From: a virus
Reading direction: 5' to 3' (one strand)
IMG/VR virus record: IMGVR_UViG_3300045988_097776
DNA length: 64,000 nt
The notes beneath the pieces were generated by a model. It saw only the letters and a program-made list of their open reading frames with translations. It was not told the DNA's origin and did no database searches. Positions 1 to 64,000 of this stretch are shown here, piece by piece. The translations under genes and the position numbers were made by a program. Numbering within the stretch: the stretch's first letter is position 1; each line of letters opens with the position of its first letter.

Positions 1-254
1 ACAGTAGTATTTAGTGTGCCGTACCCTTTATATCCATCCATTGCGGTGAGATCGACATCACGGGCGATAGCCTTGATACCGGTATTTTTAAACCAAGACT
101 CAATAGTCTTCCGCGAACCACTCTCTTTATAGTTATTGGAGTCTCCAAAAACAGAATAAATTTCTACCTCAAGGGCAATCACGAAGGGATTACCATTAAT
201 TTCGTCAAGAACGAGGCACTTTACTCCATTTACAGTAATAGTTTCACCAATCAT
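1..254 (-). CDS. hypothetical protein, 5-prime part only (gene continues past window start)
   Basis: Minus-strand ATG at 252-254 with upstream AAGGAAG RBS; frame stays open to the window edge. Product begins MIGETITVNGVKCLVLDEINGNPF. Confidence 0.4.
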   Translation of the reverse strand, partial: MIGETITVNGVKCLVLDEINGNPFVIALEVEIYSVFGDSNNYKESGSRKTIESWFKNTGIKAIARDVDLTAMDGYKGYGTLNTT

Positions 255-270
255 GTTATTTCTTCCTTTC

Positions 271-456
271 TTAATTAGCAAATTCTTCAACCATGCGGGA
301 CAACATTTCAACTTCATCATCAGTTATATTTTCTAGGAAAATTCCATATTTGCGGCAGATCTTAGCTTGTAGGTCAAAGTCATCTTGCGCTTCTGGGGTT
401 TTAGCAAGTTCTCTTGCCGCTAACTCGAAGGAGCCTGTATAGATAAGAAATGACAT
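271..456 (-). CDS. hypothetical small protein
   Basis: ORF track, 61 aa. Same strand and tight spacing with its neighbours. Confidence 0.4.
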   Translation of the reverse strand: MSFLIYTGSFELAARELAKTPEAQDDFDLQAKICRKYGIFLENITDDEVEMLSRMVEEFAN

Positions 457-458
457 AT

Positions 459-896
459 TTATTTCCTCTTCTCTATAGAGTCGAATTCGTGAATTAGAAT
501 GGCTCCATCAGAGATCTTTTCTGCGCAAGTAATGTGTTTGATTTCATATTTACTTTCATCGGGGCAATAAATAATATGCCCACTTTTCAGCAAAGAAAGA
601 AAGTCACTTTGATAATAGATATTGCCTCCGTGCTCGTTGCAAACTTTGAGACAAATTTTATATCCTTTATCAACAGAGTAAAGTTCATCCACATCATTAT
701 TTACTTCGCATAGCCGCCAAGTCGGATCTCCATTATTTATACTAATTCCGAGAACCGGGATAGGACTATAAGTTTCTTGGATAGCAAAGAATTTAGCTCT
801 TTTGAGCTGATCAGTGTCAGAAAAATCGAGGAACTCACAAATTTTTACAGTAGAGTTCTTATATCCTTTTGTCTCAACTAGCTTACTAATCTCCAT
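459..896 (-). CDS. hypothetical protein
   Basis: ORF track, 145 aa. An AT-rich TATATTATATAAT promoter-like element and RBS lie just upstream at 897-940. Confidence 0.45.
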   Translation of the reverse strand: MEISKLVETKGYKNSTVKICEFLDFSDTDQLKRAKFFAIQETYSPIPVLGISINNGDPTWRLCEVNNDVDELYSVDKGYKICLKVCNEHGGNIYYQSDFLSLLKSGHIIYCPDESKYEIKHITCAEKISDGAILIHEFDSIEKRK

Positions 897-942
897 GACT
901 TTACTTCCTTTCTTACTTTCTATATATATTATATAATATTTT

Positions 943-985
943 TATAAAAAAATAAAGACTCCCTTAAAAGGGAGTCTTTATTTAC
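943..985. terminator. bidirectional rho-independent terminator
   Basis: Hairpin AAAGACTCCC-TTAAAA-GGGAGTCTTT with an A-run on one side and a T-run on the other. Confidence 0.6.
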
Positions 986-4847: not shown

Positions 4848-5165
4848 TTATTTTTTCGGTTTACGCTTTTGTACAAGCGTTAACTCGAAACTATCCCCAC
4901 CGATAAAAAACGCAATTTGGCGTTCCTTGTTTGTTATGGCAAGGTCAACAATCGAGAATTGACTATTTTTTTCCAAAAAGTCCGCCAGCTCTGCGATTAT
5001 GCCGCCTTTAGTTGCGTTTGGCTTGCGTTGCCGTGGTGTAAATTTGTAGGCGGTAGGGGTTTTTCTTGTGCCAGCATGGGCGAATTTCTGCGCGATTTTC
5101 GCTTTATCGGGCGATAAATCGTATTGAGTTTTTTCACCAGCTTCCACCGCCTTGTCATAGGCCAA
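4848..5165 (-). CDS. hypothetical basic protein, 105 aa
   Basis: ORF track; GC-rich. Confidence 0.4.
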   Translation of the reverse strand: MAYDKAVEAGEKTQYDLSPDKAKIAQKFAHAGTRKTPTAYKFTPRQRKPNATKGGIIAELADFLEKNSQFSIVDLAITNKERQIAFFIGGDSFELTLVQKRKPKK

Positions 5166-5302
5166 TAGCTCCGCCTCCTCCTCTGGTGTCAGTTGGAGAG
5201 GCTTATATCTCGATAACCTCTCGGCGTCAGTGATACGGCTCGATATAGTCTCACCCCCTAAGATAGAGTAGGGCGGGGATTTTCGCCCCGCCCTATACGG
5301 GG

Positions 5303-5704
5303 TTACGCCATCTTAAAGAGAGACTTGCCCTTCTTCTCCTGACAGGTCACACGGCCGTCCAGCTTGAGCATCCGCACAAGGGCGGCGGCCTTCTGAGTGG
5401 AGAAAGCGGCCAGAGAGGGCACAGACTTGAAAATGTCGGTACAGGTCACGCCGTCGGTGTCATCGGGCAGGCCGGCCAGATACTCCATAATCTGCTCCTT
5501 CAGGCTCTCGTTCTCCTGCTGGGTCGGGGTCAGCTTCTTGTCACCGCCGGAGCTATTCTTCTTCCGCAACAGCTCCAGCTCATGGTCAATGACGGTCATG
5601 GCAATCTCCATGGTTGTGCCATGCTTCACCTCCTCACCAGCCAAGAGGGCCTTAATGTCCTCGAAACGCTGGGCCTTAGTGATACGGATTTTCTTCTCGC
5701 TCAT
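5303..5704 (-). CDS. hypothetical protein, 133 aa (GC-rich segment)
   Basis: ORF track; local GC content is well above the window average. Confidence 0.4.
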   Translation of the reverse strand: MSEKKIRITKAQRFEDIKALLAGEEVKHGTTMEIAMTVIDHELELLRKKNSSGGDKKLTPTQQENESLKEQIMEYLAGLPDDTDGVTCTDIFKSVPSLAAFSTQKAAALVRMLKLDGRVTCQEKKGKSLFKMA

Positions 5705-5744
5705 GGTAATACATCCTTTCTGGTTTTTAGGACTGTCCTTGTCC

Positions 5745-6060
5745 TTTGATTATATTGTACCACACTATCGGGAGTTTGTCAAGAGGTTTTTCAAACTTTT
5801 TTCAAGAGCTTTTGCCCTTTACTTGTTTGCCCTCTCTCGTTCCCCTTATAGTGTAACACACTTTGGAGAGTTTGTCAAGCCCTTTTTTATTCACTTTTCA
5901 AGGTTCCTTGCCTTGTTTTCTGTACTTATTATAGCACACTCACAAGGGCTTGTCAAGAGGTTTTTTGAAAGATTTTTGAAAGTTCGCTGTCGCTGTCTGC
6001 CGTTCGTCTCTCTCACTTTCTGTACTTATTGTACCACACCACAAAGCGGATTTCAATTGT
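5745..6060 (-). promoter_or_regulatory. array of 4 tandem near-consensus sigma70 promoters (TTGACA-17-TACAAT/TATAAT, some with TGn) reading leftward
   Basis: Minus strand: TTGACAaactcccgatagtgtggTACAAT at 5752-5780, TTGACAaactctccaaagtgtgTTACACT near 5850-5878, TTGACAagcccttgtgagtgtgcTATAAT near 5929-5956, and TTGAAAtccgctttgtggtgtggTACAAT at 6029-6057. Confidence 0.65.
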
Positions 6061-6096
6061 GAGATCCTCCAAAAGAACGTGATTTTGGGATAGGGT

Positions 6097-6120
6097 TTTT
6101 GTGCAAAATGTTGCACAAAA
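6097..6120. promoter_or_regulatory. perfect 24-bp palindrome TTTTGTGCAAAA-TG-TTGCACAAAA (operator-like) upstream of the promoter array
   Basis: The left half is the exact reverse complement of the right half. The TTGTGCAA motif recurs near other early promoters. Confidence 0.55.
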
Positions 6121-6159
6121 CGGAATCAAATTTTTTGTGCAACATTTACAAGGAAAAAA

Positions 6160-6200
6160 TCGGGTCGCGCCGCCCATGCGCGACCCGCCAAAATATAAAA
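6160..6200 (-). terminator. rho-independent terminator (minus strand)
   Basis: CGGGTCGCGC-ATGG-GCGGCGCGACCCG followed by a T-run on the minus strand. Confidence 0.6.
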
Positions 6201-6227
6201 CAAAAAAAGAAGGCCGAAGCCCTCTTT

Positions 6228-6512
6228 TTATCCGAAAAGGCAGTTATCTAAAAAGTCGAACAGGTGTTCATCCTCGGCGGGGATGGATACCAGTATATCC
6301 CCGTTTTCATCGGGTTCATCATGGCTCCATCCCATACGCTTGATGATTTCAAGCGCCGTGAAAACGGCATCGGGACAAAGGGAAGAAGTATATACAATTC
6401 TTGTTTGCATATTTAACCCTCTTTCTTTGAGTAGAACTGGTCGGCATAAAACTGCATTTCTTTCTGCGTTACCTTGGAAAGCATGGCCTTGATGGTAAAT
6501 ACATCTGGGCAC
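6228..6512 (-). CDS. hypothetical protein, 94 aa
   Basis: ORF track. Confidence 0.4.
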   Translation of the reverse strand: MPRCIYHQGHAFQGNAERNAVLCRPVLLKERGLNMQTRIVYTSSLCPDAVFTALEIIKRMGWSHDEPDENGDILVSIPAEDEHLFDFLDNCLFG

Positions 6513-6592
6513 GTCCGCTCAAGTAGGAAGCGAATAGCCTTATTCTTTAATCCCTGAAACATTTCTTATTTCTCCTTCTACCGGGCGGGGCA

Positions 6593-7417
6593 TTAAGCCC
6601 CGACCCGGATTGTCGGAATCTGCCGCAAACTTGCGGAAAGCTGACGCTGAAAATCTGTCATGGGCGGAAACTCCCGCTTGTTCTCATACAGGGCCTTTCT
6701 CATGGGCTTATGCTGGCGCATACAGTACCACATGATTTCCGCCTCAATCAGAACATCTTCCAGTCCCGTGTGGCTTTCCTCAAAATCAGTGTTGCCGGAG
6801 ATAAACCGCCACACGATTTCCGCAGTCTTGCGGGGAACGCCATTAGCCTGCACATACCCGTGTTCTTCACAGAATTTCTTATAGGTGGGCATCTGGCAAA
6901 TGACATCTTGCATCATTTTCATAATGTCCCAAATTTCCACGCTGTCAAATGGGAACCAATACCGGAATTTGGAACAAGTGACCCAACGCTGAGTGACCCG
7001 AAGGGCGTTATCATCGAAGCGGGCATTATATGCGGCGACCTCCTTAATGCCGTACCGCTCGATAGTGTCCAGCATGGCCTGACGGATTTCATAGGTAGTA
7101 GCCATCTTGCGACTGCCAGCCCGCAATTCCTCTACATACCGGGGGATTTTCCAGTTATAATAGGCCGTCCGCATTAAATCCCGCTCGTCATTGAAAATAT
7201 CCCGATTTACAAAACTTGCGGTTTCGTAAATATTGCCTTTGGTGTCTACGACCGCCCAGCCGCAGTCATATACCAAAACATTTGACATATCCATACGGAC
7301 GCGCTCTGGAGTAATAATTTCCCCATCTTCCCCAATTTCAGCGGGGACAGTCTCGGTTAATGTGTTGGCGGTTTCTGTATCAACCACCAGCACATAATGT
7401 CGGCGTTTATCAATCAT
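6593..7417 (-). CDS. DEDDh 3-prime to 5-prime exonuclease (DnaQ/RNase T-like)
   Basis: Exo I motif VLVVDTETANT, Exo II YNARFD and Exo III HTGLEDV. Length 274 aa. A consensus promoter (TTGACA-17-TATAAT) lies at 7452-7480. Confidence 0.6.
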   Translation of the reverse strand: MIDKRRHYVLVVDTETANTLTETVPAEIGEDGEIITPERVRMDMSNVLVYDCGWAVVDTKGNIYETASFVNRDIFNDERDLMRTAYYNWKIPRYVEELRAGSRKMATTYEIRQAMLDTIERYGIKEVAAYNARFDDNALRVTQRWVTCSKFRYWFPFDSVEIWDIMKMMQDVICQMPTYKKFCEEHGYVQANGVPRKTAEIVWRFISGNTDFEESHTGLEDVLIEAEIMWYCMRQHKPMRKALYENKREFPPMTDFQRQLSASLRQIPTIRVGA

Positions 7418-7590
7418 AATCTATCAAGTCCTTTCTTCTCTTGGTGGTATCATTATAGCACATTTAAGGCTTGGTGTCAAGAGGGATTTTATATTTTTTT
7501 TCTCCGTTGAAAAAGGCGTCGCGATAACCTCTCTCACAAAAGGGACTCTTTACCCTACTCTGGAGAACTTTTTCCTTTCCTCCTGACATG

Positions 7591-7720
7591 ATAATAATAC
7601 CATAGTTTCAGGATAATTGCAAGATGGCATTTTGCACAAGATTTCTGCTTGAAAATTGTGCAACATTACAACAGAAAAAAATGCGGCCCGCGGCGCTCAA
7701 GCGCGGGCCGCTGATTTTCT
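7591..7720 (-). promoter_or_regulatory. promoter-terminator cassette: TTGCAA-17-TATTAT promoter, TTGCACAA/TTGTGCAA dyad motifs and a GC-rich terminator hairpin
   Basis: About 75 bp are nearly identical to 9041-9120. Hairpin GCGGCCCGCGGCGCTCAAGCGCGGGCCGC. Confidence 0.55.
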
Positions 7721-7756
7721 TTATATAAAAAATTCTCCCATTTAGGGAGGATTTTT

Positions 7757-7993
7757 TTAAAACTCTAAAATTGGTGTTTCATCAGGCAGAGCATCTACGC
7801 TGGTGATGGAGATAGATTTATTGTAATCAGTGGAAATTCCTGTCACTCTCTCAATTTCTTTAGTGGCAATATCATACATAATATCGTTTGCAACTGAAGC
7901 CGGGCCTTTTCTATGAATATCGGCCAGCTGTTGGAAGATAGGATGATCGACCTCTAACTCACGCTGGATAGAAATTGAAATTTTAACTCTCAT
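7757..7993 (-). CDS. hypothetical protein, 78 aa
   Basis: ORF track. Confidence 0.4.
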   Translation of the reverse strand: MRVKISISIQRELEVDHPIFQQLADIHRKGPASVANDIMYDIATKEIERVTGISTDYNKSISITSVDALPDETPILEF

Positions 7994-8025
7994 ATAACTT
8001 TTCTTTCTATTGGGAACGCCTTAAA

Positions 8026-8174
8026 TGGCGTTCCCGATTTTGAAGCACTTGGCCGAAGGCGACCAAAGAGAACCGGCCTTGCGCTTGGCATCAGAACGGG
8101 CACGGTCAACATCCTTACCGACACCCACGAACACATGGCCCGCCGCAGTCTTAAAGTAGAAATTCATCATAGTA
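8026..8174 (-). CDS. hypothetical small GC-rich protein, about 49 aa
   Basis: Manual translation: MMNFYFKTAAGHVFVGVGKDVDRARSDAKRKAGSLWSPSAKCFKIGNAI. Confidence 0.35.
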
Positions 8175-8303
8175 AAGCTTCCTTTCTTTTATGAGGGTTA
8201 TCCCCTCTTGATGATTAAATTATACCACAATGCGGTGAGATTGTCAAGAACTTTTTTACGTATTTTCCAGATATGGGGCGGGGATTTCACCCGCCCCTTT
8301 TAT

Positions 8304-8768
8304 TTAGTCCAGATTGTTGATATATTCAATAATGTTTGTAGTTTGGGGGTCTACGGTATCCCCTAAATGCCAGCCGTTTCTAATTTTGCCGTTATCATCA
8401 AAGAGGATAAACGGCGGTTCATAGAAACTACGGAATACACATTTAGCTTTAGTTGTTCCATACGCCACACAATGGCATTTATGGGCCGGAAATTTATGCC
8501 TTGCAAGCCATTCCTTTTTGGCGGCTGTGACTGCTTTCTTATATTCAGGGGGGCTTTCAGGGGGCAACCATGTAATAACTCGAACCTCCCACCCGTTACT
8601 AATTGCGTTTAGAAGCGCATTTCGGAGGGCGTTCATATCCCACATGGGGGCGGCGTCTCGGAATGGGCTGGGGTCTCCATCGCGGAGTTTTTCAAGCCAG
8701 TTGGGGACTGCGTATAGATCTGCAATTGTCCCGTCCATATCAAAGCAGAGCATTTTTTTAGTTATCAT
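8304..8768 (-). CDS. HAD-superfamily phosphatase (5-prime nucleotidase / deoxyribonucleotidase-like)
   Basis: N-terminal CFDMDGTIAD (the DxDGT motif). Length 154 aa. Consensus promoter at 8791-8819. Confidence 0.55.
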   Translation of the reverse strand: MITKKMLCFDMDGTIADLYAVPNWLEKLRDGDPSPFRDAAPMWDMNALRNALLNAISNGWEVRVITWLPPESPPEYKKAVTAAKKEWLARHKFPAHKCHCVAYGTTKAKCVFRSFYEPPFILFDDNGKIRNGWHLGDTVDPQTTNIIEYINNLD

Positions 8769-8796
8769 ATATATAACCTCCTTTTGTTTTATTATA

Positions 8797-9021
8797 CTAC
8801 CTGTTGCCTATCTTGTCAACAAGTTTTTCAAAGAAATTTTTATGCCGATATACCTTATAAGGCATTGACGTATAATCCACATAAATTAGAGGGTCGCGCA
8901 AAAGAATAGCTTGCATATAGATCCCATAATTCTCTGGGGTGGTAGTACCACCAAATTGGCGGCGGTAGATTTCAGCCACAGTTAAACACTCATTAGGCCG
9001 AATAAACTTTGAAGGTTTCAT
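8797..9021 (-). CDS. hypothetical protein, 74 aa
   Basis: ORF track. Promoter TTGCAA-17-TATTAT at about 9041-9075, a duplicate of the 7600 cassette. Confidence 0.4.
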   Translation of the reverse strand: MKPSKFIRPNECLTVAEIYRRQFGGTTTPENYGIYMQAILLRDPLIYVDYTSMPYKVYRHKNFFEKLVDKIGNR

Positions 9022-9204
9022 TTAGTGTCCCTCCTTCTTTCTGTACTAATAATACCATAATTTAAGGATAATTGCAAGATGACATTTTGCACAAGATTTC
9101 AAGTCAAAAATTGTGCAGAACTTACAAACAAGAAAACTCGGCGCGCTGTGAGCGTCAGCGCGCCGTCGAAATTTTGGTATAAAAAAAGAGGGCCGAAGCC
9201 CTCT

Positions 9205-9684
9205 TTAATTTTCTGCAAATTGAGCTAGAAATTGCGCAGAAAGTCGAACCATATCATGCGCTGATTCTTTATCGTTTTTATAGCAAATAAAGCCGATTAC
9301 CTCACCTTCTGCAATAATAGGAGTAACAAACAACGATTTTCCCTTCCATTCAGTACCCCAATTACGAATATTGAACCATTCATCCGGGGTCTTTGACATT
9401 CCGAAGGGGCGAGGGCCGCACAAAAGACTTGAATTATCAAAAACCGATGCTAAAATGCCGTTAATGCTTAAAACTTTTTGAATATGTGCGGCCTGAGGAG
9501 CAAAAGAAGATAGTAGGGAATATTTCTTGAAAACCACCCCGCCATCTTCAATAAAGATTTCTAGCGGGTCGCCTTCCCGAATATTCATATTCCGACGAAT
9601 TTCCTTAGGAATTACTACCCGGCCGAGATCATCAATGCGCCGCACAATGCCAGTTACTTTCATTTTTTTTATTAGAGAGGGCAA
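9205..9684 (-). CDS. SpoVT/AbrB-family transcriptional regulator (swapped-hairpin N-domain plus GAF-like C-domain)
   Basis: N-terminus MKVTGIVRRIDDLGRVVIPKEIRRNMNIREGDPLEI is the AbrB/MazE/SpoVT signature. Length 159 aa. Terminator at 9170-9205. Confidence 0.7.
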   Translation of the reverse strand: MPSLIKKMKVTGIVRRIDDLGRVVIPKEIRRNMNIREGDPLEIFIEDGGVVFKKYSLLSSFAPQAAHIQKVLSINGILASVFDNSSLLCGPRPFGMSKTPDEWFNIRNWGTEWKGKSLFVTPIIAEGEVIGFICYKNDKESAHDMVRLSAQFLAQFAEN

Positions 9685-9714
9685 GGCTATTGCTTGCCCT
9701 CTCTACCTCCTTCC

Positions 9715-10110
9715 TTAAAACTCCTTGCGCAGTTCCTCAAGCATGGCTGTTAAGGTGTTCATATCTCCACCCATTTCCAATTTGACGCACATGAGCCGGG
9801 TCTGCTCGTTAATCCATGTGTTAATCTCTGCGATTTCATCATCCATTTTTTCCTTGGCCGGAGTATAAATGCCGCAAGTGCAGGTCTGGATGACATTCTC
9901 GCAATATCTGGAAGTCTTATAGCCCTTAGCCTGCATTTCCGCCTGGATAGTATCGCCCAGCTCATTGGCCGACTTGACGATAGCCTCCTTAAAAGCCTCC
10001 AGCGCGTCGAACTCTGGCTGATACCTCTCCCGGATAGCCGCCTCCTTACAGGCAGAAATCTTGCGAACCTCGTCACGAACATATTCTTCAATTCTCTTAG
10101 TAACACGCAT
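9715..10110 (-). CDS. hypothetical protein, 131 aa
   Basis: ORF track. Consensus promoter TTGACA-17-TATACT at 10176-10204 and terminator at 9680-9715. Confidence 0.45.
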   Translation of the reverse strand: MRVTKRIEEYVRDEVRKISACKEAAIRERYQPEFDALEAFKEAIVKSANELGDTIQAEMQAKGYKTSRYCENVIQTCTCGIYTPAKEKMDDEIAEINTWINEQTRLMCVKLEMGGDMNTLTAMLEELRKEF

Positions 10111-11462: not shown

Positions 11463-11518
11463 ATCTCTCAACTTCCTTTCTTTTGATAACTTAATTTTAA
11501 CATAAGAATTTCGGGAAG

Positions 11519-47549: not shown

Positions 47550-47562
47550 GGAGTGATTATAT

Positions 47563-53467: not shown

Positions 53468-53483
53468 GGAGGAGTAGGAGATA

Positions 53484-54074
53484 ATGCCAACTGTTGGTCA
53501 AGTATATTATAATGTAATAGATAATAACAGTGGTAGCTACGTCTCTAGTGGGTAGAATATATTTAGTGATATTATTGCCTAGGTAGGAGCCTCTCAATTT
53601 AATAAAGTTGGGGTATAGGCTCCTGCCGGCACAAAAATAGTTATGAATGAATCAAAGACTATTATGGTTGGTAGAACTGGAATATATGAACTAGATGATG
53701 ACATAGCTATTACTAATATGTATTTTATTAGACCTAGAAAGTATGAAAAAGATGAAGAAGCCTCCTAGTAGGCGATTGAGTAGGGAACTGAAGGAATGTA
53801 GGCTGCGGATAAAAAACGAGCAGACGATTTGGAACAATTTTATAAAGAAAATCCAGTTATGCCAGACCCGGATACAGATCCAGAGGGATATAGAGCTTAC
53901 TGGGATTCATATAATAATATTTAGACTACCTATATAGAGGCTTATTAGACAGCATTAAGTTTGTATAATTAGGGTGTAAACGGTATATATGTGTTACCCA
54001 ATCCTGATAATATTGATGCTCCAGAGAACTATTAGGATTTGTATAATGTTATTATTGATTTTATCTATGTATAA
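53484..54074 (+). CDS. tail structural protein, about 196 aa
   Basis: AAGGAGG RBS; several TAG. Confidence 0.3.
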
Positions 54075-54088
54075 GGAGGTGTCAAACT

Positions 54089-55999
54089 ATGGAAAGTTTC
54101 TATGGAGGACCTAAAGGTAGAGATTTTGATATTAAGGAAATCTTTACTAGCAAATATTAGATGGATAGAGATTTATCAAAGGGTTGGACATCTTCTATCT
54201 TCCCAGGTGATCTCGTTGTTGTATCATATGGTTTGCCAAGCGATACAAACTATGATATTTATAAGAATGAAGATTTATAGAATTATGGGAAAAGCTATAA
54301 CTCTACTCTTTGGCAAAAATGTTATAATGATAAAGATGGAAGCGGATCTGCGGGCGGCCTATACTATAAGATGATAGCTTCCATGACTGGTAATACACCA
54401 AGAATTAGCTTAAATGACACAGAAGTCTTGGATGCAGATGAAGATCCAAACGTGGTTTGGGATAATACCGATCTAGATAGACTTTGGCTTACTTTTCAGT
54501 TACCATAGAGTTAGAATATCTAGTTAGGAGAGACTACTATTCTGGATTGTAATGAACTTCCAGAAGCGTCTTTAGACACGACCGATATAAATAATCCTAG
54601 CTTAAAGTTGTCCTTACCGCAATCTTAGGTAATTAATACTGCATTAGTAGAATTATTAGATGTAGGTGAAAATCCAAGAGTATCTTTAGAAGTTTCAGGA
54701 GATTATTCTATCAACAAACCGGCAATTAAGTTTTATCTACCTGTATCTTAGTCATTATAGGAAGGTATTACTACAACTTTAGATGCTAATGAAAAACCTA
54801 GATTTGAAATAAATTTTGATGATATAAACAATCCAATTATTAATTTCTTCTTGCCTCAAAGTTAGGTGATGGGAGATCCAGAAACTACGGTAGTGGGACC
54901 CGAGGAGAATCCATCTGTAGTAATGGATGATTCGAATATTAATGCGCCAGTATTGAAATTTAGTTTACCAGAAGCGGTTAAATTTTACTATGGCGAGTTA
55001 CTAGGCGAGAGAACAGAAGGAACTTACGAAGAAACTAATGATTCTTTTGTGGATTATAATGTTGGTGATTATTACATTAATGCACCAACCGGTTTTATTT
55101 ATAAAGTAATCAATAAAACTGGAACCACTTGTACTTTTTAGTATATAGCTTGTATTTAGTCTCCTCTTCCTACTATAGAAGTTACAGAATTAAAGCCATA
55201 TACAGATAAAGGTTCTGAGTTTGAGCCGACAATTCCTACGGTTACAAGGGAGTTTACTAACGAAGAACAAACTGCCTGGAAGCTAGTTTTTGGGCTGCCA
55301 TCCGCGGTTAAATACACTACTTCATTTGCTTTTGTTGGAATTGACGAAACTGGCTCTGTATCCAATGAAATTACAGCAGATGACACTATAAATATTGATT
55401 TTAAGATTCCTAGAGGATCAAAATTATACTCTGGAACTTAGATTTCTGATTCAACAACATCTACTGTTATTGAGGGTGCGAAAGCTGGAGATTTATATTT
55501 AAATACAGAAACCGGAGATATATATGAATTAAATTCTTCTGGTATATGGGAGAAAAATTCCGGCAATTTAAAAGGCCCTGTTGGCGAGGCTCTTAATATC
55601 GTTAAGAGCTACACAATAAATGAGACAGACACGCTAAAAGATTCTTTATAGAATGGTGTAGATTATATTGAAGAAAACTATGATGGAGAAATTAGCGCGT
55701 AGGATATTTTCTCTATTACGTGGGTAGAATATGAAACTAACCAAGAAACTTCTTACTGGTATTATAAAGCCGCAGATGGAGTGTGGGGAAGAGTCTAGCT
55801 AACCGGAGGTATTGCTAACCTTATTGATAATGATTATAATAATGAAGATGGTGGAGAGGTAACAAATAAAACTTATAGCGTTCATTATATCAACACTTTA
55901 ATCGGTGGAGCTATTACAAATAAAGATAGATAGACATATTCTGCCGAATAGATAGAAGAGTTGTTATCTTGGGGAAGTTTTAGTGATTTAATACCTTAA
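54089..55999 (+). CDS. tail fiber / receptor-binding protein with tandem repeats of about 40 aa, about 636 aa
   Basis: Repeated units …NNPSLKLSLP[Q]S[Q]…, …NKPAIKFYLPVS[Q]…, …NNPIINFFLP[Q]S[Q]…, …NAPVLKFSLPEA… AAGGAGG RBS. Confidence 0.4.
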
Positions 56000-56032
56000 T
56001 TTATATTTAGAGAGTATAAAGGAGGGCCTAAA

Positions 56033-56815
56033 ATGGCTTTATTTAAGATTTTTCGAGGACCAGAAGATAATTTGAATAGTGTACCTCTTCATGAAGGATA
56101 CGCTTATTTCACAGAAGATAAAGGAAATCTCTTTATTGATATTAGTAATGAAGAAGGTGGGCGTTTGCAGGTAAATGCCTATGCTGCTCAAGTTCTAAAG
56201 AATGATATTACTGAGATTGATATTGATGATATTTTTCTTAAAAATATGACTGCCACTGTAGCTCAGGGCGGAACTGGACATAATAGTCTAACTGTAAATG
56301 CTTTATTAATTGGTAATGGAACTAATGCGGTAAAGATGGTTGAAATTGAGGCTGGTTAGGTTGTTATCGGAAATAGCGAGAATGGTGTAACAGGATTGCA
56401 AGGAACTGGCGCTTTATTTGCCGCTACAGCTGGCGCTCCGCAATTTGGAACGCTTCCAATTTCAGTTGGTGGAACTGGGGCAATTAATGCAGCAGGGGCG
56501 AGAACTAATTTAGATGTGTATAGCAAATTGGAAACAGATAACTAGATTAGTGGAAGTACTACGGCAGCTTATCCAGCAACTCTTTCTGCATCAGGTTGGG
56601 TATTAAATGAAGATATGTATACATATACTTATTCCAATACTTCTTTAACTTGCGGAAAAGCAGGTAATGTGCCACCTATTATTAGTTATACTTCTAATCT
56701 TGAAGAGTATAGTAAAATTGATCACGCTGATGCATCAGTTGGGGTTGGAATTACCTTTTATACAAAAGAAAAACCAACAAATGATATTGCTATTATTATC
56801 ATTGATGTAAAATAA
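56033..56815 (+). CDS. tail fiber protein, about 260 aa
   Basis: …TVAQGGTGHNSLTVNALLIGNG… and …LPISVGGTGAINAAGARTNLDVY… match the widespread phage tail-fiber GGTGA…AAGAR…NLG motif. Last gene of the plus-strand late operon. Confidence 0.6.
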
Positions 56816-57319: not shown

Positions 57320-57959
57320 AGTTTAATTCAATAGCTTTTAATTTATCTATTGAATCAGCTTCGAATATCTAAGTTTTATATTCTTGCATTAAATGATATT
57401 TGGGATATACCACATTTGAAATAGCTAAACTTAGAGCGGATAATTGCTCTAAACTCCATGGCACACATTCTTCGTGTCGAGCGTGCCACTCAAGCGTAGG
57501 ATTTTCTACTTCAGCCGCGAGAGCGACTTGATATTGATTGAGATTTAAGCTAATCTCAGACTGGTCCTCCTACGTAATTCCATATTCTTTTCCATCAACC
57601 CAAGTTAGTGGGTGGGTAGCAAGATACTCTGCGAATAGTTTCTTGTTTTCCTCTTGTTTGTCATACTTTGCCTAATCTAAATCAGAAGTGAATGTTCCAT
57701 CTTCTTGATTATATATTGAATAATTAGGAGTAACATCTGATGGAATTGTTTCTATCTCTAATACTTTTACAGCATTAGATTGATTTAATACATCGGCTTT
57801 AATTAGAGTATAATGTGTATCTCCATTTGAGCCGATAACCCCAGTTCCCTCTTCTTCCTCGCAGGCAACGACAATACCATTTGAGGATTGCAGTTTAATG
57901 TAACGTGCTTCTGAAAGAATATCAACTACTACATTCTCTCTATTTAATAGAATATACAT
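57297..57959 (-). CDS. DUF4376-like protein (tail-fiber assembly/chaperone-like), about 220 aa, 4 in-frame TAG
   Basis: The listed 95-aa ORF continues through TAGs (…ATHPLTWVDGKEYGIT[Q]ED[Q]SEISLNLN[Q]Y…). Family assignment is from memory and tentative. Confidence 0.3.
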
Positions 57960-58135
57960 TACTTTATTTCAACTCCTTTAAATAATGAACGAAAATAATT
58001 GTCCATATCTTGAATTATATAAAAACAAGTTCCTTTAGAAATATGTGCCCTCCAACCTTGATAGGATTTCTAAATTTCATCTGTTGAAATTTTACCCTCT
58101 AACCATAGCGCTTGCATTTTCTTTAACTTTCTGCG

Positions 58136-59176
58136 CTAATGAGCCACTTTCTTTTTAAAAGGAATTTGTATTATATGATTAGTGTCTGTGAGATAAAAGT
58201 TCCACTTTAAGTATTTTAATGGAGCGTGACGTTTGCCGTCCGCATGAATAGGAGAGATTCTAGTAATAGTAGTCTTTTTCTTATTCATCTTTAATCCTTG
58301 CTTATTTAAGCGAACTTCTATTCTCTTTTCACATTCGGCTAAGTATTGACTGTCATTGTGGAATAAATATAAATCATCCATATAACGACCATAATACTTA
58401 ATATGTAACTCTTCTTTGATGAAGTGGTCAATTTCGTTCAATGCTAGCAATGCGAATAATTGTGATGTTTGACTTCCTAATCCAAGACTTTTATTATCAT
58501 ATTCATAGTATTTGCGGCCAGGCTTAAAATTAGTGGTACTAATTCTCGTGTATTTGTGCCGTTTACTAATATAATAATCTTTTCCTGGTATGGGAGAGGA
58601 ATCTTTTGTTAGCTTAAAAGAAAATGTATCTATTAAATAACAGCATAGTTGATAAATTCTTTTATCTTTTATCAAACGTTTAGCCGCTTTCTTTAAAGAT
58701 TTATGGTCAATAGAATCAAAATATTTTTGAATATCAATTCTTAACCCATAAAAATCTTTTCCTAATCCATATTCTCTATGAGCTTGTTGAAGATGTTTCT
58801 TTACTCTTTTTAAAGCAAAGTCTATTCCTTTTCCTCTTAAAGTAGCACAATTATCGTAGATAAATCTAGGAGTTAATTCTGGTAATAAAACTTGTTCACA
58901 TAACGCATTTTGTACCAGTCTGTCGTTGATATGACACGCTCTTATATCTCTTGGTTTGCCTCGTTCGATTATCGAAAAACAACTAAACACAAGCTATTCG
59001 TATTCACACGCTCGCAGATCAGCTTCTGTTTTTAAAATTGTTTCTATCCTATTCTCTTCAAAATTAATTGTACTATCTTTCCATCGAACGTTTCGGCATA
59101 CCTTATAAGACGCATCATACATAGTGTCAAAACTACAAAAACGCTCGAAAGTAGTATCTTGATTTATTTCAGACAT
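58136..59176 (-). CDS. diversity-generating retroelement (DGR) reverse transcriptase, 346 aa, 1 in-frame TAG
   Basis: The two listed ORFs (59176-58994 and 58990-58136) are one frame joined by TAG 58994-58996. RT motifs FDSIDH and YMDD (GRYMDDLYLF). The DGR-specific motif LGLGSQTSQ (I/LGxxxSQ) replaces the group-II-intron QGxxxSP. AAGGAG RBS 6 nt before the ATG. Confidence 0.85.
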
Positions 59177-59485
59177 ACTTTCTCCTTATCATGTAGCTAT
59201 AGTAGTAGCTACTCGAGCTCCACGTCTACAGTCTTACTTTATCCACTTTTTCAGTGAAATGGTTAAGTTCTCCTTAGATGAAAAGGCAGATCTACCTATA
59301 GTATATTATTCGATAGTTGTAGAGCAAAGCTCTTTAATGGTCTCTCAATCTCTTCCCCACATAGTGAGTGCAATCCAGAGTAAACCTTAATTAGATGGAT
59401 AATAATATACTCCGGGGTACTATTTAGGCGTTGCTCGTTTGCGCTGCTCCGCAGCTTAACTCGCAACATGATAGCTCCATCTAAT
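59177..59485 (-). ncRNA. DGR spacer region between TR and the RT (expected to be transcribed with TR as the TR-Sp template/primer RNA)
   Basis: About 310-nt non-coding interval between TR and the RT start. Its role is inferred from DGR architecture, not from the sequence. Confidence 0.4.
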
Positions 59486-59585
59486 CCGGCGCGAGCCCGT
59501 TGCTGTTGTTGTAGTTGTTGTTGTTCGCAGATCCATCGTTGTTGACATTGCAAACGTTGTTCGAGTTGTTGTAGTTACGGGACCG
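59486..59585 (-). repeat. DGR template repeat (TR), 100 bp
   Basis: Identical to 60209-60308 except at 17 positions, all of which are adenines on the minus (coding) strand of this copy. Reads as AAC-rich codons (RSRNYNNSNNVCNVNNDGSANNNNYNNSNGLAP). Confidence 0.9.
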
Positions 59586-59615
59586 AAAGATACAGAACTT
59601 AACCGCAGAAAAATA

Positions 59616-60110
59616 TTATCGACCTCTCCTATGGGTTTTAGGAGCCGAATATCTATGCTCGACTATAAGTTTATCTCTATTTTTTCTATCTTGGATTGAT
59701 TCTTTTACTTTCTTAGTCAATCTAGCTAGATGTTCAAAAGATCTTCTTTTCTTTTTGCTGTTCTGAGCATACTAATAAATACATAGGTCGATTTGTCGAA
59801 ATATACTATCACAATATTCAATCGCTCTATTGTGATATTCATTTCTTTTTGTAAGGGTTTCTTTATCTTTTAAGTTTATCCTACACGCCTCATAACAGCA
59901 AGCGTGTATACCCTTTCCGCATTTAATTATATCGTACCCGAACGCTTGAAGAGGTTGACCCTCTCCAAGCAGTCCAGGTTTGCAGATTTGTTTTCCATCC
60001 TTATCAAATTCTCTAGGACGAGTTAAGACTAAAATGTAGCCAACCAATTCACGGGCTTTATAAAGACAGTCTTGTTTTGATAGGTGTCTATCCTTTACTT
60101 TTACAGACAT
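59616..60110 (-). CDS. avd: accessory variability determinant (Avd)-like protein, about 164 aa, 1 in-frame TAG
   Basis: Small basic protein in the canonical Avd position between VR and TR. GAGGGA RBS. The sequence does not look obviously like the classic four-helix-bundle family, so the call is positional. Confidence 0.45.
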
Positions 60111-60191
60111 TTAAAATTTCCCTCACTTGAATATATAATTTTTTTATTGGACAATTTAACCTTAACTGTCCCGAATTGTTATTTTGCTGTA

Positions 60192-61949
60192 TTATCCAAT
60201 GACGAAAGCCGGCGCGAGCCCGTAGCTGGTGCCGTAGGGGTTGGAGTTCGCAGATCCACCGGTGTCGACAAAGCAAACGTGGTTCGAGTGGCTGTAGTAA
60301 CGGGACCGTTCCCAATACCACATCGTTGAATTCGTCAACGAACCATTGGCGTTCATCTGGTATTTAACTCTAGTAGAGTTGCTTGTATAGTAACTATAGG
60401 CCGTCTAACTTCCTCCAACAGTCCACTCCTAATAAGAACTAGCATAGCCGCTAGAGCTAGTAAATCCCATCTCACATTCAGAAGGTAGCCAACATTTTGC
60501 AGTTGTTTGAACATCCGCAGTATTATTCTAATTACCATTACTAGCAGAACTTGTCTTCTTAGTAACAGATTTAATAGAAGCGGTTGCGCTACATCTATTA
60601 CCAAAATCATTGCACAAGGATTGAGCGGTTGAACCATTCCATAACGCGTTACTACCAAATGATGTACTGTTAGGTAAAGTTCCCGCAGTCTGGAAAGTTA
60701 ATGTTCCAGTTCCATCCTAATCAGCACCAATACAAATCATTGTAGCAGCATTTCCCCCGAGGACCGCAGAAGAAAGACTTACGAGTTTCTTCTTGCCTAC
60801 ACAATTTTTTCGCTCTCCAGATGACGCTTTAGCAGCCCATGTTTTTAATCCAGCCCACCATTTAGCATCACCAACAGTAGTTTCAGAACCCCACTCCCAA
60901 TAGCTAGCTGTTACAGTAACAGTCTTATTTCCTGGGGCTATATAGTTGGTTCCCTCTGCGACTTTAATAGTAATAGTAGTAGAAGAAATAGCCGTACTGC
61001 CATCACCTTTAATTGTAAGAACATTTCCACTTAAAGACAAAGTTAAACCAGAAACGCTAGTTGGACTATAACTAATAGCTCCATCTCCAGAACGAGTAAT
61101 GGTAACCTTTACACCGGCACTATAGTTATCTCCATCAAGAGCTACAGAAGTCGGATTTACTGTTAAACTTCCAGCAGCTTTATTAATAGTCCAATTTACA
61201 TCAAGATTTGATGTAGTTCCATCGGCCCATCTATAATTACTATTTAGTGTGAAAGTAGCAGTATAGGTTCCAGCGTTAGTCGCGGAAGTTGTCCCGCCAA
61301 TCGTCATATAAGTGGTATTAAAGTTATTCCAATAGGAAGCACCACTTACTGATTGGCTACTACCAGTATAGGTAAGATTATTCTTCCATGTTGGTTTCGG
61401 CACCGATTTTCTTTCAACAGTAACATTGAAAGAAGCAGACTGAGTTACTCCATTTTCTGTGTAAGAAACAGTAATTTTCTAGGTGCCAACCGCAGTTAAT
61501 GACGTTGGAGAGCAACTATACCCGGTAACCGCGGATGATGTACTATCAGAATAACTTGCTGTAACTACCATTCCTGTTGTTTGGAGAGTGTCTCCATATT
61601 CATAAGTTGTCTTAGTTGGGTTAGTAGTAACCTAAATACTAAGAAGTTTATGAATAACAGTAATGTCTTGAGTGGTCTAACAAGTTTCTCCTAATTCAGA
61701 GTAAGTAATTGTTACTTTAGTAACCCCATCAGTTAAAGGGTTTGGAGTAACTTGATACCCAGTTACTTCTGCTGTTGTTACAATAACGCCGTCCATGCCG
61801 TAAGATGCGGTGACTACCATTCCCGCGGGATTAAAAGTATCACCAGCAAGATAGCTCGTTTTAGTAGGGGGAGTGGTTACTTCAATTTTTACAAGAGAAA
61901 GAGAACCTCCACCTTTTCCACCCTATTCAGCTAAAATACATTTAGGCAA
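60192..61949 (-). CDS. DGR target protein: N-terminal tandem bacterial Ig-like domains plus C-terminal C-type-lectin/FGE-fold variable domain, about 585 aa, about 8 in-frame TAG
   Basis: TTG start with AGGAGGT RBS at 61949. Listed ORF 60717-61403 is in frame and joins through TAGs to …AKCWLPSECEMGFTSSSGYASSY[Q]EWTVGGS[Q]TAYSYYTSNSTRVKY[Q]MNANGSLTNSTMWYWERSRYYSHSNHVCFVDTGGSANSNPYGTSYGLAPAFVIG, then TAA 60192. VR covers the last 35 codons. Confidence 0.8.
60209..60308 (-). repeat. DGR variable repeat (VR), 100 bp, at the 3-prime end of the target gene
   Basis: 17 of 35 TR adenine positions are substituted (to C, G or T) and there are 0 of 65 differences at non-adenine positions. GC-rich IMH-like 3-prime end GGGCTCGCGCCGG. 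Confidence 0.9.
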
Positions 61950-62274
61950 ATTATTTACCTCCTTCTATCTAGCTATTGTTTCAAACAAATCTAAACTACT
62001 AGATAGAAGGTCGAGGATGGAAGCGATCTTCGCTCCAGTCTTTTAGAAAGCCATAAACAATTTCCGAGAAAAAGTACACTTTTTAACAGGAAAAATACTT
62101 TTTCTTCCTAGATAACAAAAAATTGGGAAAAGGGTAAGAAACCCTTTTCCCAAAAGTGAGTATCTTACTCTTTTCAAATATACTTGAAAAAGAGTATAGA
62201 TTGATTATATATGTTTGACCAAGTTCAGTAAAGTGTACTTTTTCAAAAGTTTTAGATGAAAGGAGAATTATGCT

Positions 62275-63264
62275 ATGAATTGTATTTTATAGGGTTAGAT
62301 TAAAGGAGCAAATAAGGAGTTATCTAACCTAAGCAACTACCAAAAAACTCTCCGCAACATCGGTGGGCGACCGAACCGGAACCTTCTGGACAACTGGTAC
62401 TTCGTGGGCGGCGGCTCCCAGCAGGTCGGTGGCCAGTTCCCCATTAACCAGAGGGGGGAGACGAGCCATGCCGGTTCAGGGGGATTCATAGACAGATGGA
62501 AGCTGAGTGGGGAAGGCACTGCAATCCTGGGCAGCGATGGAATCACTTTAACTGCTACAACAGGGAATCTGGAATTTATTCAATTTTTGGGCATTCCAAA
62601 TGACCGTCTATTGGGAGAAACAGTTTGCCTCTCTGGACTGGTTGATGGAGACCTGCTATCGATGTCCACGTCTGCCCCGGAAGAAAAACCGAGTGCGTGG
62701 ACAAATATCATAAACATTATCAAACCGTTTGGATTTGTCCAGTTTAATTATGACAATACGGCGGACAGGTTTTTTTGTAGCGCTATCGTCTCGGCAGGCA
62801 ACAGCGTACTCCTGCAAGCATCTAAGCTGGAGCTTGGCTCCACCCAAACCCTCGCTTACCAGGACGAGGAGAGTAATTGGAAGCTCTTTGAGACGCCGGA
62901 TTATGCCGGGGAGCTGGCTCGGTGCCAGAGGTATCTACTGGTTTTGCCTGGATTCAACACATTGTTTTCAAATATTGGGGTTGGTTCGTTCTTTTCGGAA
63001 ACAGAGGCGGAAATCACAATACCAACACCTACTACGATGCGGATTATGCCGACATGCGCATCCACAGGGAATTGGCTTCTGAGAGGCGGTGGGCAACTTA
63101 TAAATGTAGAAGCGAGTGCATCAAATTTCTTCGTCCAGCAGATGTCCTCAAACGCAGTGAGCATGATAATCAACGGATTGTCTGGGTGCCCAGCAAATCA
63201 AGCTACCCAGCTCTTACGAAGTAATAACAGCACGGCCAAGATTACACTTTCCGCCGAACTATAA
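62275..63264 (+). CDS. tail fiber / receptor-binding-like protein, about 329 aa; GC-rich compared with the rest of the window
   Basis: AGGAG RBS plus ATG at 62275. N-terminus MNCIL[Q]G[Q]IKGANKELSNLSNYQKTLRNIGGRPNRNLLDNWYFVGGGSQQ resembles fiber-tip and receptor-binding domains. GC content rises sharply from about 62330 to about 63470. Confidence 0.4.
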
Positions 63265-63276
63265 GAGGTGACCACC

Positions 63277-63954
63277 ATGGACTACACACTCGAACCATAC
63301 ATCGTCTATGTTCAGACAGACGAGCAAGGCCGCATTACCGCCGTCAATAGCTCCGCCTTTGTCTCCACCGACTGGGGCACGGAGATTGACAGCGGATTTG
63401 GCGATAAATATTACCATGCTTAGGGTAACTATTTTCCAGAGTCTATCTATATCAACGATGGAATTCCCCGATACAAGCTAGTGGACGGCTAGGCGATGGA
63501 ACGCACGGAGGAAGAAATAGAGCAAGATAGACTCCCAAATATAAAACTATTAAAAGAAAAGCAAATCTCTAGTTATTGTAATAAAGCTATAATAGAAGGA
63601 ATGGATATTACCACTTCAAAGGGAATAGAACATTTCTCTTTACAAGAAACAGACTAGATTAACTTAACAACAGCATTGGCAGCTGTTTAGTAGGGAGCTT
63701 CTGTTTATCCTTATCATGCGGATAAAAGCCTTTGTCGTATGTTTACAGCAGAGGAAATTAAGAATATTTCTCAATCTGTCATATAGCATAAACTCTATCA
63801 TACAACTTTATGTAATCATTTATTAACTTGGATTAGACGCTCTACATCAAGAGAAGAGATAGAAAATATCTCTTATTCAGCGGAAAACTTACCAGACGAT
63901 CTGGCTCAAAATATGCTATCTATATTATCCCAAGAACAATCTTATTCTTTATAA
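63277..63954 (+). CDS. DUF4376-like tail-fiber chaperone candidate, about 225 aa
   Basis: Follows the receptor-binding-like gene by 12 bp. Reads through about 8 TAG to TAA 63952. The first 190 nt are GC-rich and the rest is AT-rich. Confidence 0.3.
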
Positions 63955-64000
63955 ATATATTATATAATAAAATAATATAAAAATCTAATTGCGGAATTGC

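Follow-up and report, generated by a model that had tools for sequence, protein, structure and literature searches.

A 64,000-nt stretch of viral DNA (IMG/VR record IMGVR_UViG_3300045988_097776; hereafter the window), which represents about 44% of a genome of ~146 kb, raises the question of whether TAG is a stop codon in this phage and, if it is not, which amino acid it encodes, in which genes, and by what means it is decoded. The first-pass annotation of the window had proposed that TAG is reassigned along its whole length to a sense codon, most likely Gln. TAG-to-Gln recoding in bacteriophages is said to have been described by Ivanova et al. in 2014 and by Borges et al. in 2022. We are highly confident that the window derives from an SPbeta-like gut siphovirus whose middle and late genes use genetic code 15, in which TAG encodes Gln, whereas TAA and TGA keep their role as stops.

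About 40 genes use TAG as a sense codon

Open reading frames of at least 100 aa, measured from stop to stop, total 11,312 aa under table 11 versus 27,264 aa when TAG is read as sense, 18 frames rather than 3 are at least 300 aa long, and the longest frame in the window grows from 465 to 2904 aa. No comparable gain was obtained with control reassignments, the longest frame being 465 aa with TGA as sense and 494 aa with TAA as sense. Long genes are therefore restored only by reading TAG through, as the claim of a TAG reassignment had required. With gene starts anchored on ribosome binding sites (RBS) for the counting of TAGs, 339 of the 17,251 codons of a conservative gene set are in-frame TAGs, and strong Shine-Dalgarno sites immediately precede the long TAG-containing frames. 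These frames stop at TAA or TGA at the positions where homologues in non-recoded relatives stop, confirming that both codons still terminate; in some of those relatives TAG is itself a true stop. Once two early ORFs ending at TAG are set aside, the 51 gene ends comprise 41 TAA and 10 TGA codons. Alignment to homologues did not place the TAG columns in gaps or at protein ends, the outcome that had been named in advance as contrary to recoding, and gaps account for 3.5-8% of TAG columns.

In order to identify the encoded residue, TAG was masked as X before alignment, so that no residue was favored. Against three cultured standard-code references (Enterococcus EF1, Brevibacillus Sundance and Alicyclobacillus KKP_3916), Gln lies opposite 18.6% of TAG columns and 19.7% of CAA/CAG columns, compared to a background of 4.6%, and Gln is preferred over Glu, the next best residue, by 32 log-likelihood units. 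The margin of Gln over any other residue is 98 log units with all references and 290 to 717 log units with non-recoded family members, ten of which carry Gln at 311 of 620 TAG columns. Across 80 relatives, the codons found at the TAG positions of the window are CAA (30%), TAG (17%) and CAG (11%). Furthermore, canonical Gln codons are lowered to 1.4-2.5% in TAG-rich genes and reach 3.7-5.2% once TAG is included, while TAG-free genes contain 2.9-3.2% Gln. The close match between the residue profile opposite TAG and that opposite CAA/CAG in standard-code relatives bears out the earlier suggestion, and the alignments strongly support Gln as the residue encoded by TAG.

Two other accounts of these codons were weighed. 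The idea that the in-frame TAGs are untranslated, and reflect pseudogenes, fragments, or assembly or sequencing artefacts, is the least credible explanation that we considered: table 11 does break the genes into short pieces, and GenBank relatives such as phAss-1 were deposited as fragments, but the 339 in-frame TAGs occur without an intervening TAA or TGA in frames of up to 8.7 kb. In addition, an independent assembly of a strain with 99% identity retains 51 of 52 TAGs, the single change being TAG to CAG; 70 of the 87 codons that differ between the two strains are changed synonymously, and the same pattern of in-frame TAGs recurs in dozens of independent contigs. It is also very improbable, though marginally less so, that TAG is a sense codon for Glu, Lys, Tyr, Trp, Leu or pyrrolysine. 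After Gln, the residues most often seen opposite TAG are Glu and then Lys, and ARAGORN labels CUA tRNAs "Pyl" by default; however, these two residues are also the ones that most often replace ordinary Gln in these alignments, the Gln profile is the best in each of the three comparisons given above, relatives mostly carry CAA or CAG at these positions, and Tyr and Trp are rare there. With regard to pyrrolysine, the Lys profile at TAG was worse than that of Gln by 54 to 746 log units, and no pyl genes (pylTSBCD) were present among the annotated proteins.

Distribution of TAG among gene classes

The features on which the following description is based are as follows.

4848..16162, minus strand: early block of 18 short genes with at least nine consensus sigma-A promoters, strong terminators and a GC content of 43-47%
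11519..11755, minus strand: AbrB/MraZ-like early regulator, one in-frame TAG (RLRE-TAG-MGL)
16505..56815, both strands: main TAG-recoded region, TAG making up 1.9-3.6% of codons and 43-62% of Gln codons
16505..17296, minus strand: FolD (methylene-THF dehydrogenase/cyclohydrolase), 6 in-frame TAGs
20749..22494, plus strand: large terminase (TerL), 581 aa, 14 in-frame TAGs, TGA stop
22871..24499, plus strand: portal protein, 542 aa, 11 TAGs
25781..28140, plus strand: g49, major capsid protein g50, and g51, no in-frame TAG, all Gln codons CAA/CAG
31285..32679, plus strand: virion structural protein, probably the major tail protein, 0 TAGs in 464 codons
34878..43577, plus strand: tape measure protein, 2899 aa, 103 in-frame TAGs, GTG start, TAA stop
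57959..61949, minus strand: diversity-generating retroelement (DGR) with reverse transcriptase, accessory gene, template repeat (TR), target gene and variable repeat (VR)
57959-59176, minus strand: DGR reverse transcriptase, 3 TAGs
59483-59585: DGR TR
59616-60110, minus strand: DGR accessory gene, 1 TAG
60192-61949, minus strand: DGR target gene, 8 TAGs
60206-60308: DGR VR
62275..63954, plus strand: two genes, the first with 2 in-frame TAGs and the second with 6

The main recoded region includes FolD and g41 on the minus strand and, on the plus strand, genes for a GIY-YIG endonuclease, a sigma-like factor, TerL, the portal, head and tail proteins, the tape measure and the baseplate and fibre proteins. 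TAG constitutes about half of all Gln codons in the structural, packaging, fibre and some metabolic genes. The tape measure, which is preceded by an AAGGAGG RBS at -9 and is homologous to those of EF1, phAss-1, Sundance and KKP_3916, is indeed the single 2899-aa frame that had been predicted, with the GGYTGEF...LHEKELVLN motif at residues 2780-2802. Of the three Gln residues assigned to TAG in its segment Y[Q][Q]GLTE[Q]EVL, two are TAG codons and the third is an ordinary Gln codon. The two halves of TerL each match a separate PHROG family, and this suggests that relatives were deposited as fragments. FolD does regain its PVPGGVG motif after a TAG, and one of its TAGs falls opposite the conserved Q in the SQvYV motif of bacteria. 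Similarly, the N-terminus of the DGR reverse transcriptase is joined to its body by a TAG at residue 60, ahead of the RVT_1 domain (residues 73-322). In the first of the two genes at 62275..63954, TAGs occupy codons 6 and 8, directly after the RBS-anchored ATG.

TAG is enriched in late and structural genes and depleted in early genes, with FolD and g41 as exceptions. The early block contains one in-frame TAG in 2116 codons (0.05%), compared to 0.5% in the replication module of close relatives and 1.9-3.6% in late genes. Therefore, the proposal of whole-window recoding stands with respect to TAG as a sense codon, but its extent was overstated, as the early block is nearly TAG-free. Five abundant virion proteins likewise contain no TAG in 1397 codons; g49, one of the TAG-free genes, is a possible scaffold or decoration protein. 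The further claim that recoding is not confined to late genes holds for FolD, the DGR genes and the AbrB-like gene, at whose TAG codon relatives have precisely CAA or CAG while carrying TAG at other Gln positions of the same gene. Ten sigma-A promoters were found on the minus strand with scores of 11-12 of 12, the tenth of which, at 17685, lies outside the early block and upstream of g41 and FolD. Because these two genes are TAG-rich despite a consensus sigma-A promoter, the early/late split is not clean, and the timing itself is suggested by the promoter consensus and by which genes are present. The standard code is compatible with the early block, in which two ORFs (8797-9021 and 13730-14107) that under table 11 end at TAG, just ahead of the next gene or RBS, may terminate there. 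The ORF-poor, GC-rich stretches at 4-12 kb are promoter and terminator arrays with short genes rather than known RNAs; Rfam gave no matches in the window, nor did it at the TerL and NrdD loci of relatives.

Relationship to phAss-1 and other recoded phages

The window belongs to an SPbeta-like siphovirus from the gut that is related to phAss-1, and its host is probably a member of the Clostridia. Of the complete genomes in the phage collection that we searched, phAss-1 (GenBank OQ749652) is the closest. Its record contains three annotated tRNA-Sup-CTA genes, NCBI places it in the "Caudoviricetes code 15 clade", and it was described along with the proposed "Phassvirus" and the wider monophyletic group to which it belongs (Babkin et al. 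2023, PMC10607447). The phAss-1 group has already been published as TAG-to-Gln recoded (PMC10607447). TerL (42% identity), portal (34%), major capsid protein (51%), the tape measure and early-region genes are homologous and largely syntenic between the window and phAss-1, and the conserved order of TerL, portal, capsid and giant tape measure places the window in the phAss-1/SPbeta-like group. Both phages also share a human gut origin, a tape measure of ~3000 aa, and TAG-to-Gln recoding of TerL and the tape measure. They differ in GC content (36.6% here versus 44.5% in phAss-1) and in the vicinity of NrdD, which adjoins two Sup-CTA tRNAs in phAss-1 and has no tRNA beside it in 78 of 78 loci of this clade. 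By ICTV practice, a genus corresponds to about 70% nucleotide identity over the genome. Protein identities between the window and phAss-1 are 25-58%, blastn of the first 17.7 kb of the window against phAss-1 gave short matches only, and megablast of the 24-kb structural module (window 17700-42000) gave no match in the phage collection, all of which points to a genus distinct from that of phAss-1. The window may belong with BK048656_ctOa11 (147,880 bp, 35.3% GC), for which a tRNA-Sup was reported (PMC10607447).

A YonF-like TerL, a YonE-like portal, a giant tape measure and the replication genes YorF, YorH, DnaB and Pol III alpha are features that this phage group has in common with the standard-code SPbeta-like siphoviruses (Bacillus SPbeta, Enterococcus EF1, Brevibacillus Sundance and Lactococcus 949/WRP3), in which, unlike here, TAG is a stop. 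About ten uncultured members of the window's own family also use TAG as a stop. A related terminase is present in at least 279 IMG/VR contigs, and within the family the number of TAGs per terminase gene takes every grade from 0 to 14.

Recoding of this kind is well described. Metaproteomics has confirmed code 15 in crAss-like gut phages (Peters et al. 2022, PMC9523058), and TAG-to-Gln recoding in gut phages is likewise treated by Kienbeck et al. (2024, PMC10879173) and by Cook et al. (2024, PMC11210395). As in the published code-15 gut phages, the window combines in-frame TAGs in conserved genes, Gln in the homologues, retention of TAA and TGA as stops, a concentration of TAG in structural and late genes with scarcity in early and replication genes, and a gut origin. 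No difference in principle separates it from them; experimental validation comes from crAss-like podoviruses that infect Bacteroidota, whereas the phage reported here is a large SPbeta-like siphovirus, probably of Clostridia. The phenomenon is therefore real but already known, including in this phage lineage.

Decoding of TAG and its implications

Our search for a tRNA(CUA) covered about 120-135 kb, by estimate, of a genome of ~146 kb, as pieced together from relatives. Flanking sequence was sought in IMG/VR with exact patterns from the window and in one metagenome scan, most flanks coming from relatives 86-92% identical, and the replication module was reached through protein searches and contig look-ups. 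NrdD loci were targeted because phAss-1 keeps two of its Sup tRNAs beside this gene. No tRNA(CUA) was found within the 64-kb window, in the 7.9 kb to its left (from a 99.9%-identical contig), in the 9 kb to its right, in an array of at least 28 tRNA genes and a tmRNA in 86%-identical relatives, at 78 loci around NrdD, or in the replication module of relatives. The same searches of the window and flanks revealed no release-factor gene. The array includes genes for tRNA-Gln(UUG) and tRNA-Gln(CUG), and tRNA arrays differ between relatives. Between the phAss-1 clade and this one, tRNAs share only about 70-85% identity. We examined as a disguised suppressor, and rejected, a tRNA-like gene with an inserted anticodon arm (L009 4894-5010): it contains no CTA, and removal of its 44-nt insert yields a Pro(UGG)-like anticodon arm.

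Given that no tRNA(CUA) was found in the searched sequence, we infer the decoder. On the basis of published work on recoded phages, the host would use the standard code, and early genes would be translated before recoding becomes active. A phage amber-suppressor tRNA-Gln(CUA), encoded outside the window, would then outcompete release factor 1, and late and lytic genes rich in TAG, the sigma-like factor among them, would be made only after this switch, while the TAG-free capsid and major tail genes would keep the most-translated messages independent of a limiting suppressor.

A refinement of this scheme, which we regard as possible but do not favor, gives TAG a dual, time-dependent meaning, such that in the early block it would be a stop until the suppressor appears and would be read as Gln from then on. 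ORFs 8797-9021 and 13730-14107 would then end at TAG early in infection and gain 13 and 25 residues, respectively, later on. The fit of the early block to the standard code, the position of both TAGs before the next gene or RBS, and the use of TAG as a stop in non-recoded relatives agree with such a switch in meaning, as does conservation in relatives of the tail beyond the TAG of the 13730 ORF, although this tail could be a coding extension or a regulatory element, and the AbrB-like early gene clearly requires TAG to be Gln. Less likely again is that the lineage lacks a canonical suppressor tRNA of its own, in which case decoding would use a host factor, a near-cognate phage tRNA-Gln(CUG/UUG), or a non-canonical, unrecognised tRNA-like RNA. 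The negative search, the Gln(UUG) and Gln(CUG) genes of the array, and the two recoded genomes of the wider phAss-1 group that lack tRNA-Sup (PMC10607447) favor this idea; on the other hand, about 12-25 kb of the genome lies outside the searched sequence, much of which comes from relatives of limited identity, tRNA arrays are variable among relatives, and BK048656_ctOa11, a genome like this clade in size and composition, has a tRNA-Sup (PMC10607447). That an entire clade of ~146-kb gut siphoviruses recodes TAG without its own canonical tRNA(CUA) is slightly more doubtful still.

These findings leave current understanding unchanged. In practical terms, the window and its many relatives need to be annotated with translation table 15, as table 11 fragments the terminase, portal, tape measure, fibre, FolD and DGR genes; in some public gene calls TAG is already read through. 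Gene-class-specific recoding is seen here in a clean, textbook form, and the distribution of TAG in the window agrees with the published proposal that late gene expression is gated by a switch of code. Finally, the graded use of TAG among close relatives, including non-recoded ones, could serve the study of how a code switch evolves, with the family as a natural series for the onset of codon reassignment.

In-frame TAG codons in the window

The gene groups of the window, whose GC content is 36.6%, were identified through matches to PHROG and Pfam and by tblastn, and are arranged as follows.

17.7-56.8 kb, + strand: packaging and structural module, with a sigma-like factor, TerL, portal, major capsid protein, virion and tail proteins, a 2899-aa tape measure, and baseplate and fibre genes
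17.6 kb down to ~4.8 kb, - strand: FolD and a block of short early genes
58-62 kb: diversity-generating retroelement (DGR)

When genes were re-called with TAG as a sense codon, the number of stop-to-stop open reading frames (ORFs) of at least 300 aa rose from 3 to 18 and the longest grew from 465 to 2904 aa, with control reassignments giving a longest ORF of only 465 aa for TGA and 494 aa for TAA. Starts were anchored on Shine-Dalgarno motifs, with AAGGAGG-type sites lying directly 5' of the long ORFs. In a conservative set of 53 genes, 339 of the 17,251 codons are in-frame TAGs, and neither TAA nor TGA occurs in frame. Moreover, the TAA and TGA ends of the ORFs fall within a few residues of the ends of homologues in non-recoded family members, some of which themselves terminate in TAG. 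Of 52 in-frame TAGs, a 99%-identical strain retains 51, and 70 of its 87 changed codons are synonymous. Given the gain in ORF length, the agreement of gene ends and the conservation between strains, the TAGs are real, conserved and in frame, confirming the observation of recoding made in the first-pass annotation.

The terminase gene (TerL, 20749-22494) matches two different PHROG families, through residues 5-218 and 353-578, and therefore some PHROGs seem to have been built partly from fragments of recoded relatives called under table 11, the standard code.

Glutamine as the residue at TAG

The first-pass annotation had proposed glutamine as the most likely meaning of TAG. Every TAG was masked as X, to avoid biasing the alignments, and the residues opposite were counted. 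Against phAss-1 (GenBank OQ749652), the nearest complete genome in the phage collection searched, Q stands at 34 of 131 TAG columns and at 33 of 165 ordinary Gln columns, over a background of 4%. Against three cultured phages of standard code the figures are 18.6% of TAG columns and 19.7% of CAA/CAG columns (background 4.6%), and the runner-up residues, E, K, N and D, are identical for the two sets. The substitution profiles of all 20 residues were also compared for their fit to the TAG columns; that of Gln was best, its lead over Glu being 32 log units when only the cultured phages are used and 98 when all references are included. The family includes members with no in-frame TAG, and in its non-recoded members Q occupies 311 of 620 TAG columns, with Gln ahead by 290 to 717 log units.

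The codons of relatives point the same way. Across 80 of them, the positions of the window's TAGs are held by CAA (30%), TAG (17%) and CAG (11%), followed by GAA, AAA and AAT, and the sole TAG difference between two near-identical strains is a change to CAG. In FolD, one TAG lies opposite the Q that is conserved in the bacterial 'SQvYV' motif of solved structures. Canonical Q makes up 1.4-2.5% of residues in TAG-rich genes and 3.7-5.2% once TAG is counted, compared with 2.9-3.2% in TAG-free genes, so that counting TAG as Gln repairs an otherwise odd deficit. Support for reading TAG as Gln is strong, and confidence in it is high.

Uneven use of TAG among gene classes

TAG use by gene class.
Early block, 18 genes, 4.8-16.2 kb, - strand: 1 TAG in 2116 codons
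g49, capsid g50, g51, major tail g56 and g58: 0 TAG in 1397 codons
TerL, portal and neighbours: 1.9% of codons
Other head and tail genes: 3.1% of codons
Tape measure: 3.6% of codons
Distal tail and fibre genes: 2.3% of codons
FolD and g41: 2.4% of codons
GIY-YIG, sigma-like factor and g44: 2.7% of codons
DGR genes and neighbours: 1.1% of codons

TAG accounts for 43-62% of Gln codons in all classes at 16.5-56.8 kb except the five abundant virion proteins; its share is 24-28% among the DGR-region genes and in g74-g75, which lie at the window's right end. The TAG-free virion genes lie at 25781-28140 (g49, capsid, g51), 31285-32679 (major tail-like) and 34237-34767 (g58), among neighbours in which TAG provides 40-75% of Gln codons. 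They have a GC content of 39-42% versus 31-35% around them, with the exception of g51 (37%) and g58 (34%). In close relatives the replication module has only 0.5% TAG; the codon is absent from gyrase, ligase, RNase H, YorF and the AAA_24 protein, and the amidases, the RecJ-like protein and the GIY-YIG endonuclease are TAG-rich. The distribution across classes shows that the first-pass annotation was right to extend recoding beyond virion genes, as TAG is present in FolD, the AbrB/MraZ-like gene and the DGR genes, yet its description of recoding as whole-window was too strong: it holds for most middle and late classes and not for the early block or the five virion proteins. Recoding has reportedly been proposed, by Borges et al. 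in 2022, as a gate for late and lytic genes, and the class-specific pattern seen here agrees with that proposal.

GIY-YIG homing-endonuclease genes are scattered in the genome (window 17737-18450; window-equivalent 69242-69907 in the relative locus L010; 453-1139 in relative locus L199) and are unusually TAG-rich, with 4, 7 and 5-8 TAGs, respectively. FolD (methylene-THF dehydrogenase/cyclohydrolase; 16505-17296, - strand) is without the usual N-terminal 'IIDGK' segment, and has a consensus sigma-A promoter upstream yet is TAG-rich.

The DGR is complete, with all 18 TR/VR mismatches at TR adenines, and its RT, accessory and target genes each contain in-frame TAG.

57959-61949, - strand: complete DGR
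57959-59176, - strand: RT
59483-59585, - strand: TR
59616-60110, - strand: accessory gene
60206-60308, - strand: VR, at the 3' end of the target gene

The early block has a GC content of 43-47%. Ten sigma-70/sigma-A promoters are predicted on its strand, scoring 11-12 of 12 against the consensus (TTGACA, 17 nt, TATAAT), nine with an extended -10 TG. Nine lie upstream of early-block genes and the tenth, at 17685, upstream of g41 and FolD.

~5782, 5956, 7480, 8247, 8819, 10204, 10663, 12748, 14189, 17685, - strand: predicted sigma-A promoters

The promoters form 57-59-nt repeat families interleaved with many strong GC-rich terminators (5700-17700), which explains the ORF-poor, GC-rich (43-47%) appearance of 4-16 kb, and parts of the region are also conserved in the DNA of phAss-1 (130-133 kb). 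The sole TAG of the block is in the AbrB/MraZ-like gene, and at precisely this position relatives have CAA or CAG. Under table 11 two early ORFs, 8797-9021 and 13730-14107 (- strand), terminate at TAG; read-through would add 13 and 25 residues, respectively, and the 25-residue tail, FINPALQNPRQGRVIIIKRKKAVL, shows higher conservation among relatives than does the body of the protein. These tails may be time-dependent C-terminal extensions. Two early genes adjoin and slightly overlap at 14760-15946 (- strand), one for a PTH2-type peptidyl-tRNA hydrolase (E 2e-23) and the other for a microbial-type poly(ADP-ribose) glycohydrolase (E 8e-27); both are TAG-free. Speculatively, a peptidyl-tRNA hydrolase may have a bearing on drop-off where TAG codons are contested in a code-switching phage.

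The decoding tRNA and the recoded family

No tRNA gene or Rfam match was detected in the 64-kb window, nor any tRNA in the 7.9 kb to its left on a 99.9%-identical contig. Further left, relatives 86% identical in DNA carry a tRNA array that starts ~8 kb from the window and numbers at least 28 tRNAs, Gln(UUG) and Gln(CUG) among them, as well as a tmRNA; no CUA anticodon was found in it. The 9 kb right of the window carry lysis-like and nucleotide-metabolism genes, ending with NrdG and NrdD, and no tRNA. In phAss-1, two suppressor tRNAs with a CUA anticodon (Sup-CTA) adjoin NrdD and one more is within the tRNA array; we therefore examined 78 NrdD loci of the window's clade, and detected no tRNA of any kind. 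Three further steps through the replication module of relatives also gave none, and no release-factor gene was present in the annotated stretches. By synteny, the search covered all but ~12-25 kb of a ~146-kb genome pieced together from relatives, and yielded no CUA tRNA. A suppressor-tRNA mechanism for the window phage is therefore inferred from its relatives and the literature. Babkin et al. (PMC10607447) report a tRNA-Sup in BK048656_ctOa11 (147,880 bp, 35.3% GC), which matches the window's clade in size and composition, and two further recoded genomes in the wider group that lack it. That no canonical suppressor tRNA was found in most of the reconstructed genome is a point of some residual interest.

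The tmRNA in the array of relatives (L009 2025-2340, L007 3902-4222, L006 11915-12245) matches Rfam RF00023 with up to 114.6 bits and encodes the tag peptide DNDYFENYLAA. A tRNA-like gene missed by ARAGORN (L009 4894-5010, equivalent to L007 1418-1534; Rfam tRNA 49.8 bits) adjoins two tRNA-Gln genes and has a 44-55-nt insertion in the anticodon arm; removal of 44 nt leaves a perfect 5-bp stem and a UGG (Pro) anticodon loop, and no CUA is present in the gene. In a more distant relative (L205 1-8000), genes for an RNA ligase, an AAA_33 kinase-like protein, three metallophosphatases, RNase T and a YqeY (GatB-like) domain protein lie upstream of PhoH, and look like a tRNA repair or maintenance module.

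A related terminase is present on at least 279 IMG/VR contigs. IMG/VR also includes the strain IMGVR_UViG_3300045988_152426, 99.15% identical over 11 kb. Complete-looking members of the clade are 146-149 kb and are binned with Oscillospiraceae, Eubacterium or Lachnospiraceae MAGs. Among the nearest sequenced phages, portal identity is 50% to an unannotated human faecal contig and 34% to phAss-1; others are SPbeta-like large siphoviruses, among them Enterococcus EF1, Brevibacillus Sundance, and phages of the Lactococcus 949 and Bacillus Tsamsa types.

That gut phages recode TAG to Gln is already established: metaproteomics has validated it in crAss-like phages (PMC9523058), and PMC11210395 and PMC10879173 survey it. 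Recoding has been described for the same group of large siphoviruses (Babkin et al. 2023, PMC10607447), NCBI places phAss-1 under 'Caudoviricetes code 15 clade', and public gene calls of close relatives already read through TAG. The window phage is one more member of this described lineage. Across TerL and its flanking 10 kb in 80 IMG/VR relatives (L015-L094), the number of in-frame TAGs per terminase is graded, being 0 in L044-L050, L062, L067 and L068, 1-10 in others and 14 in the window's clade; in the non-recoded members TAG serves as a stop. That close relatives span TAG usage from none to heavy is the second point of residual interest.
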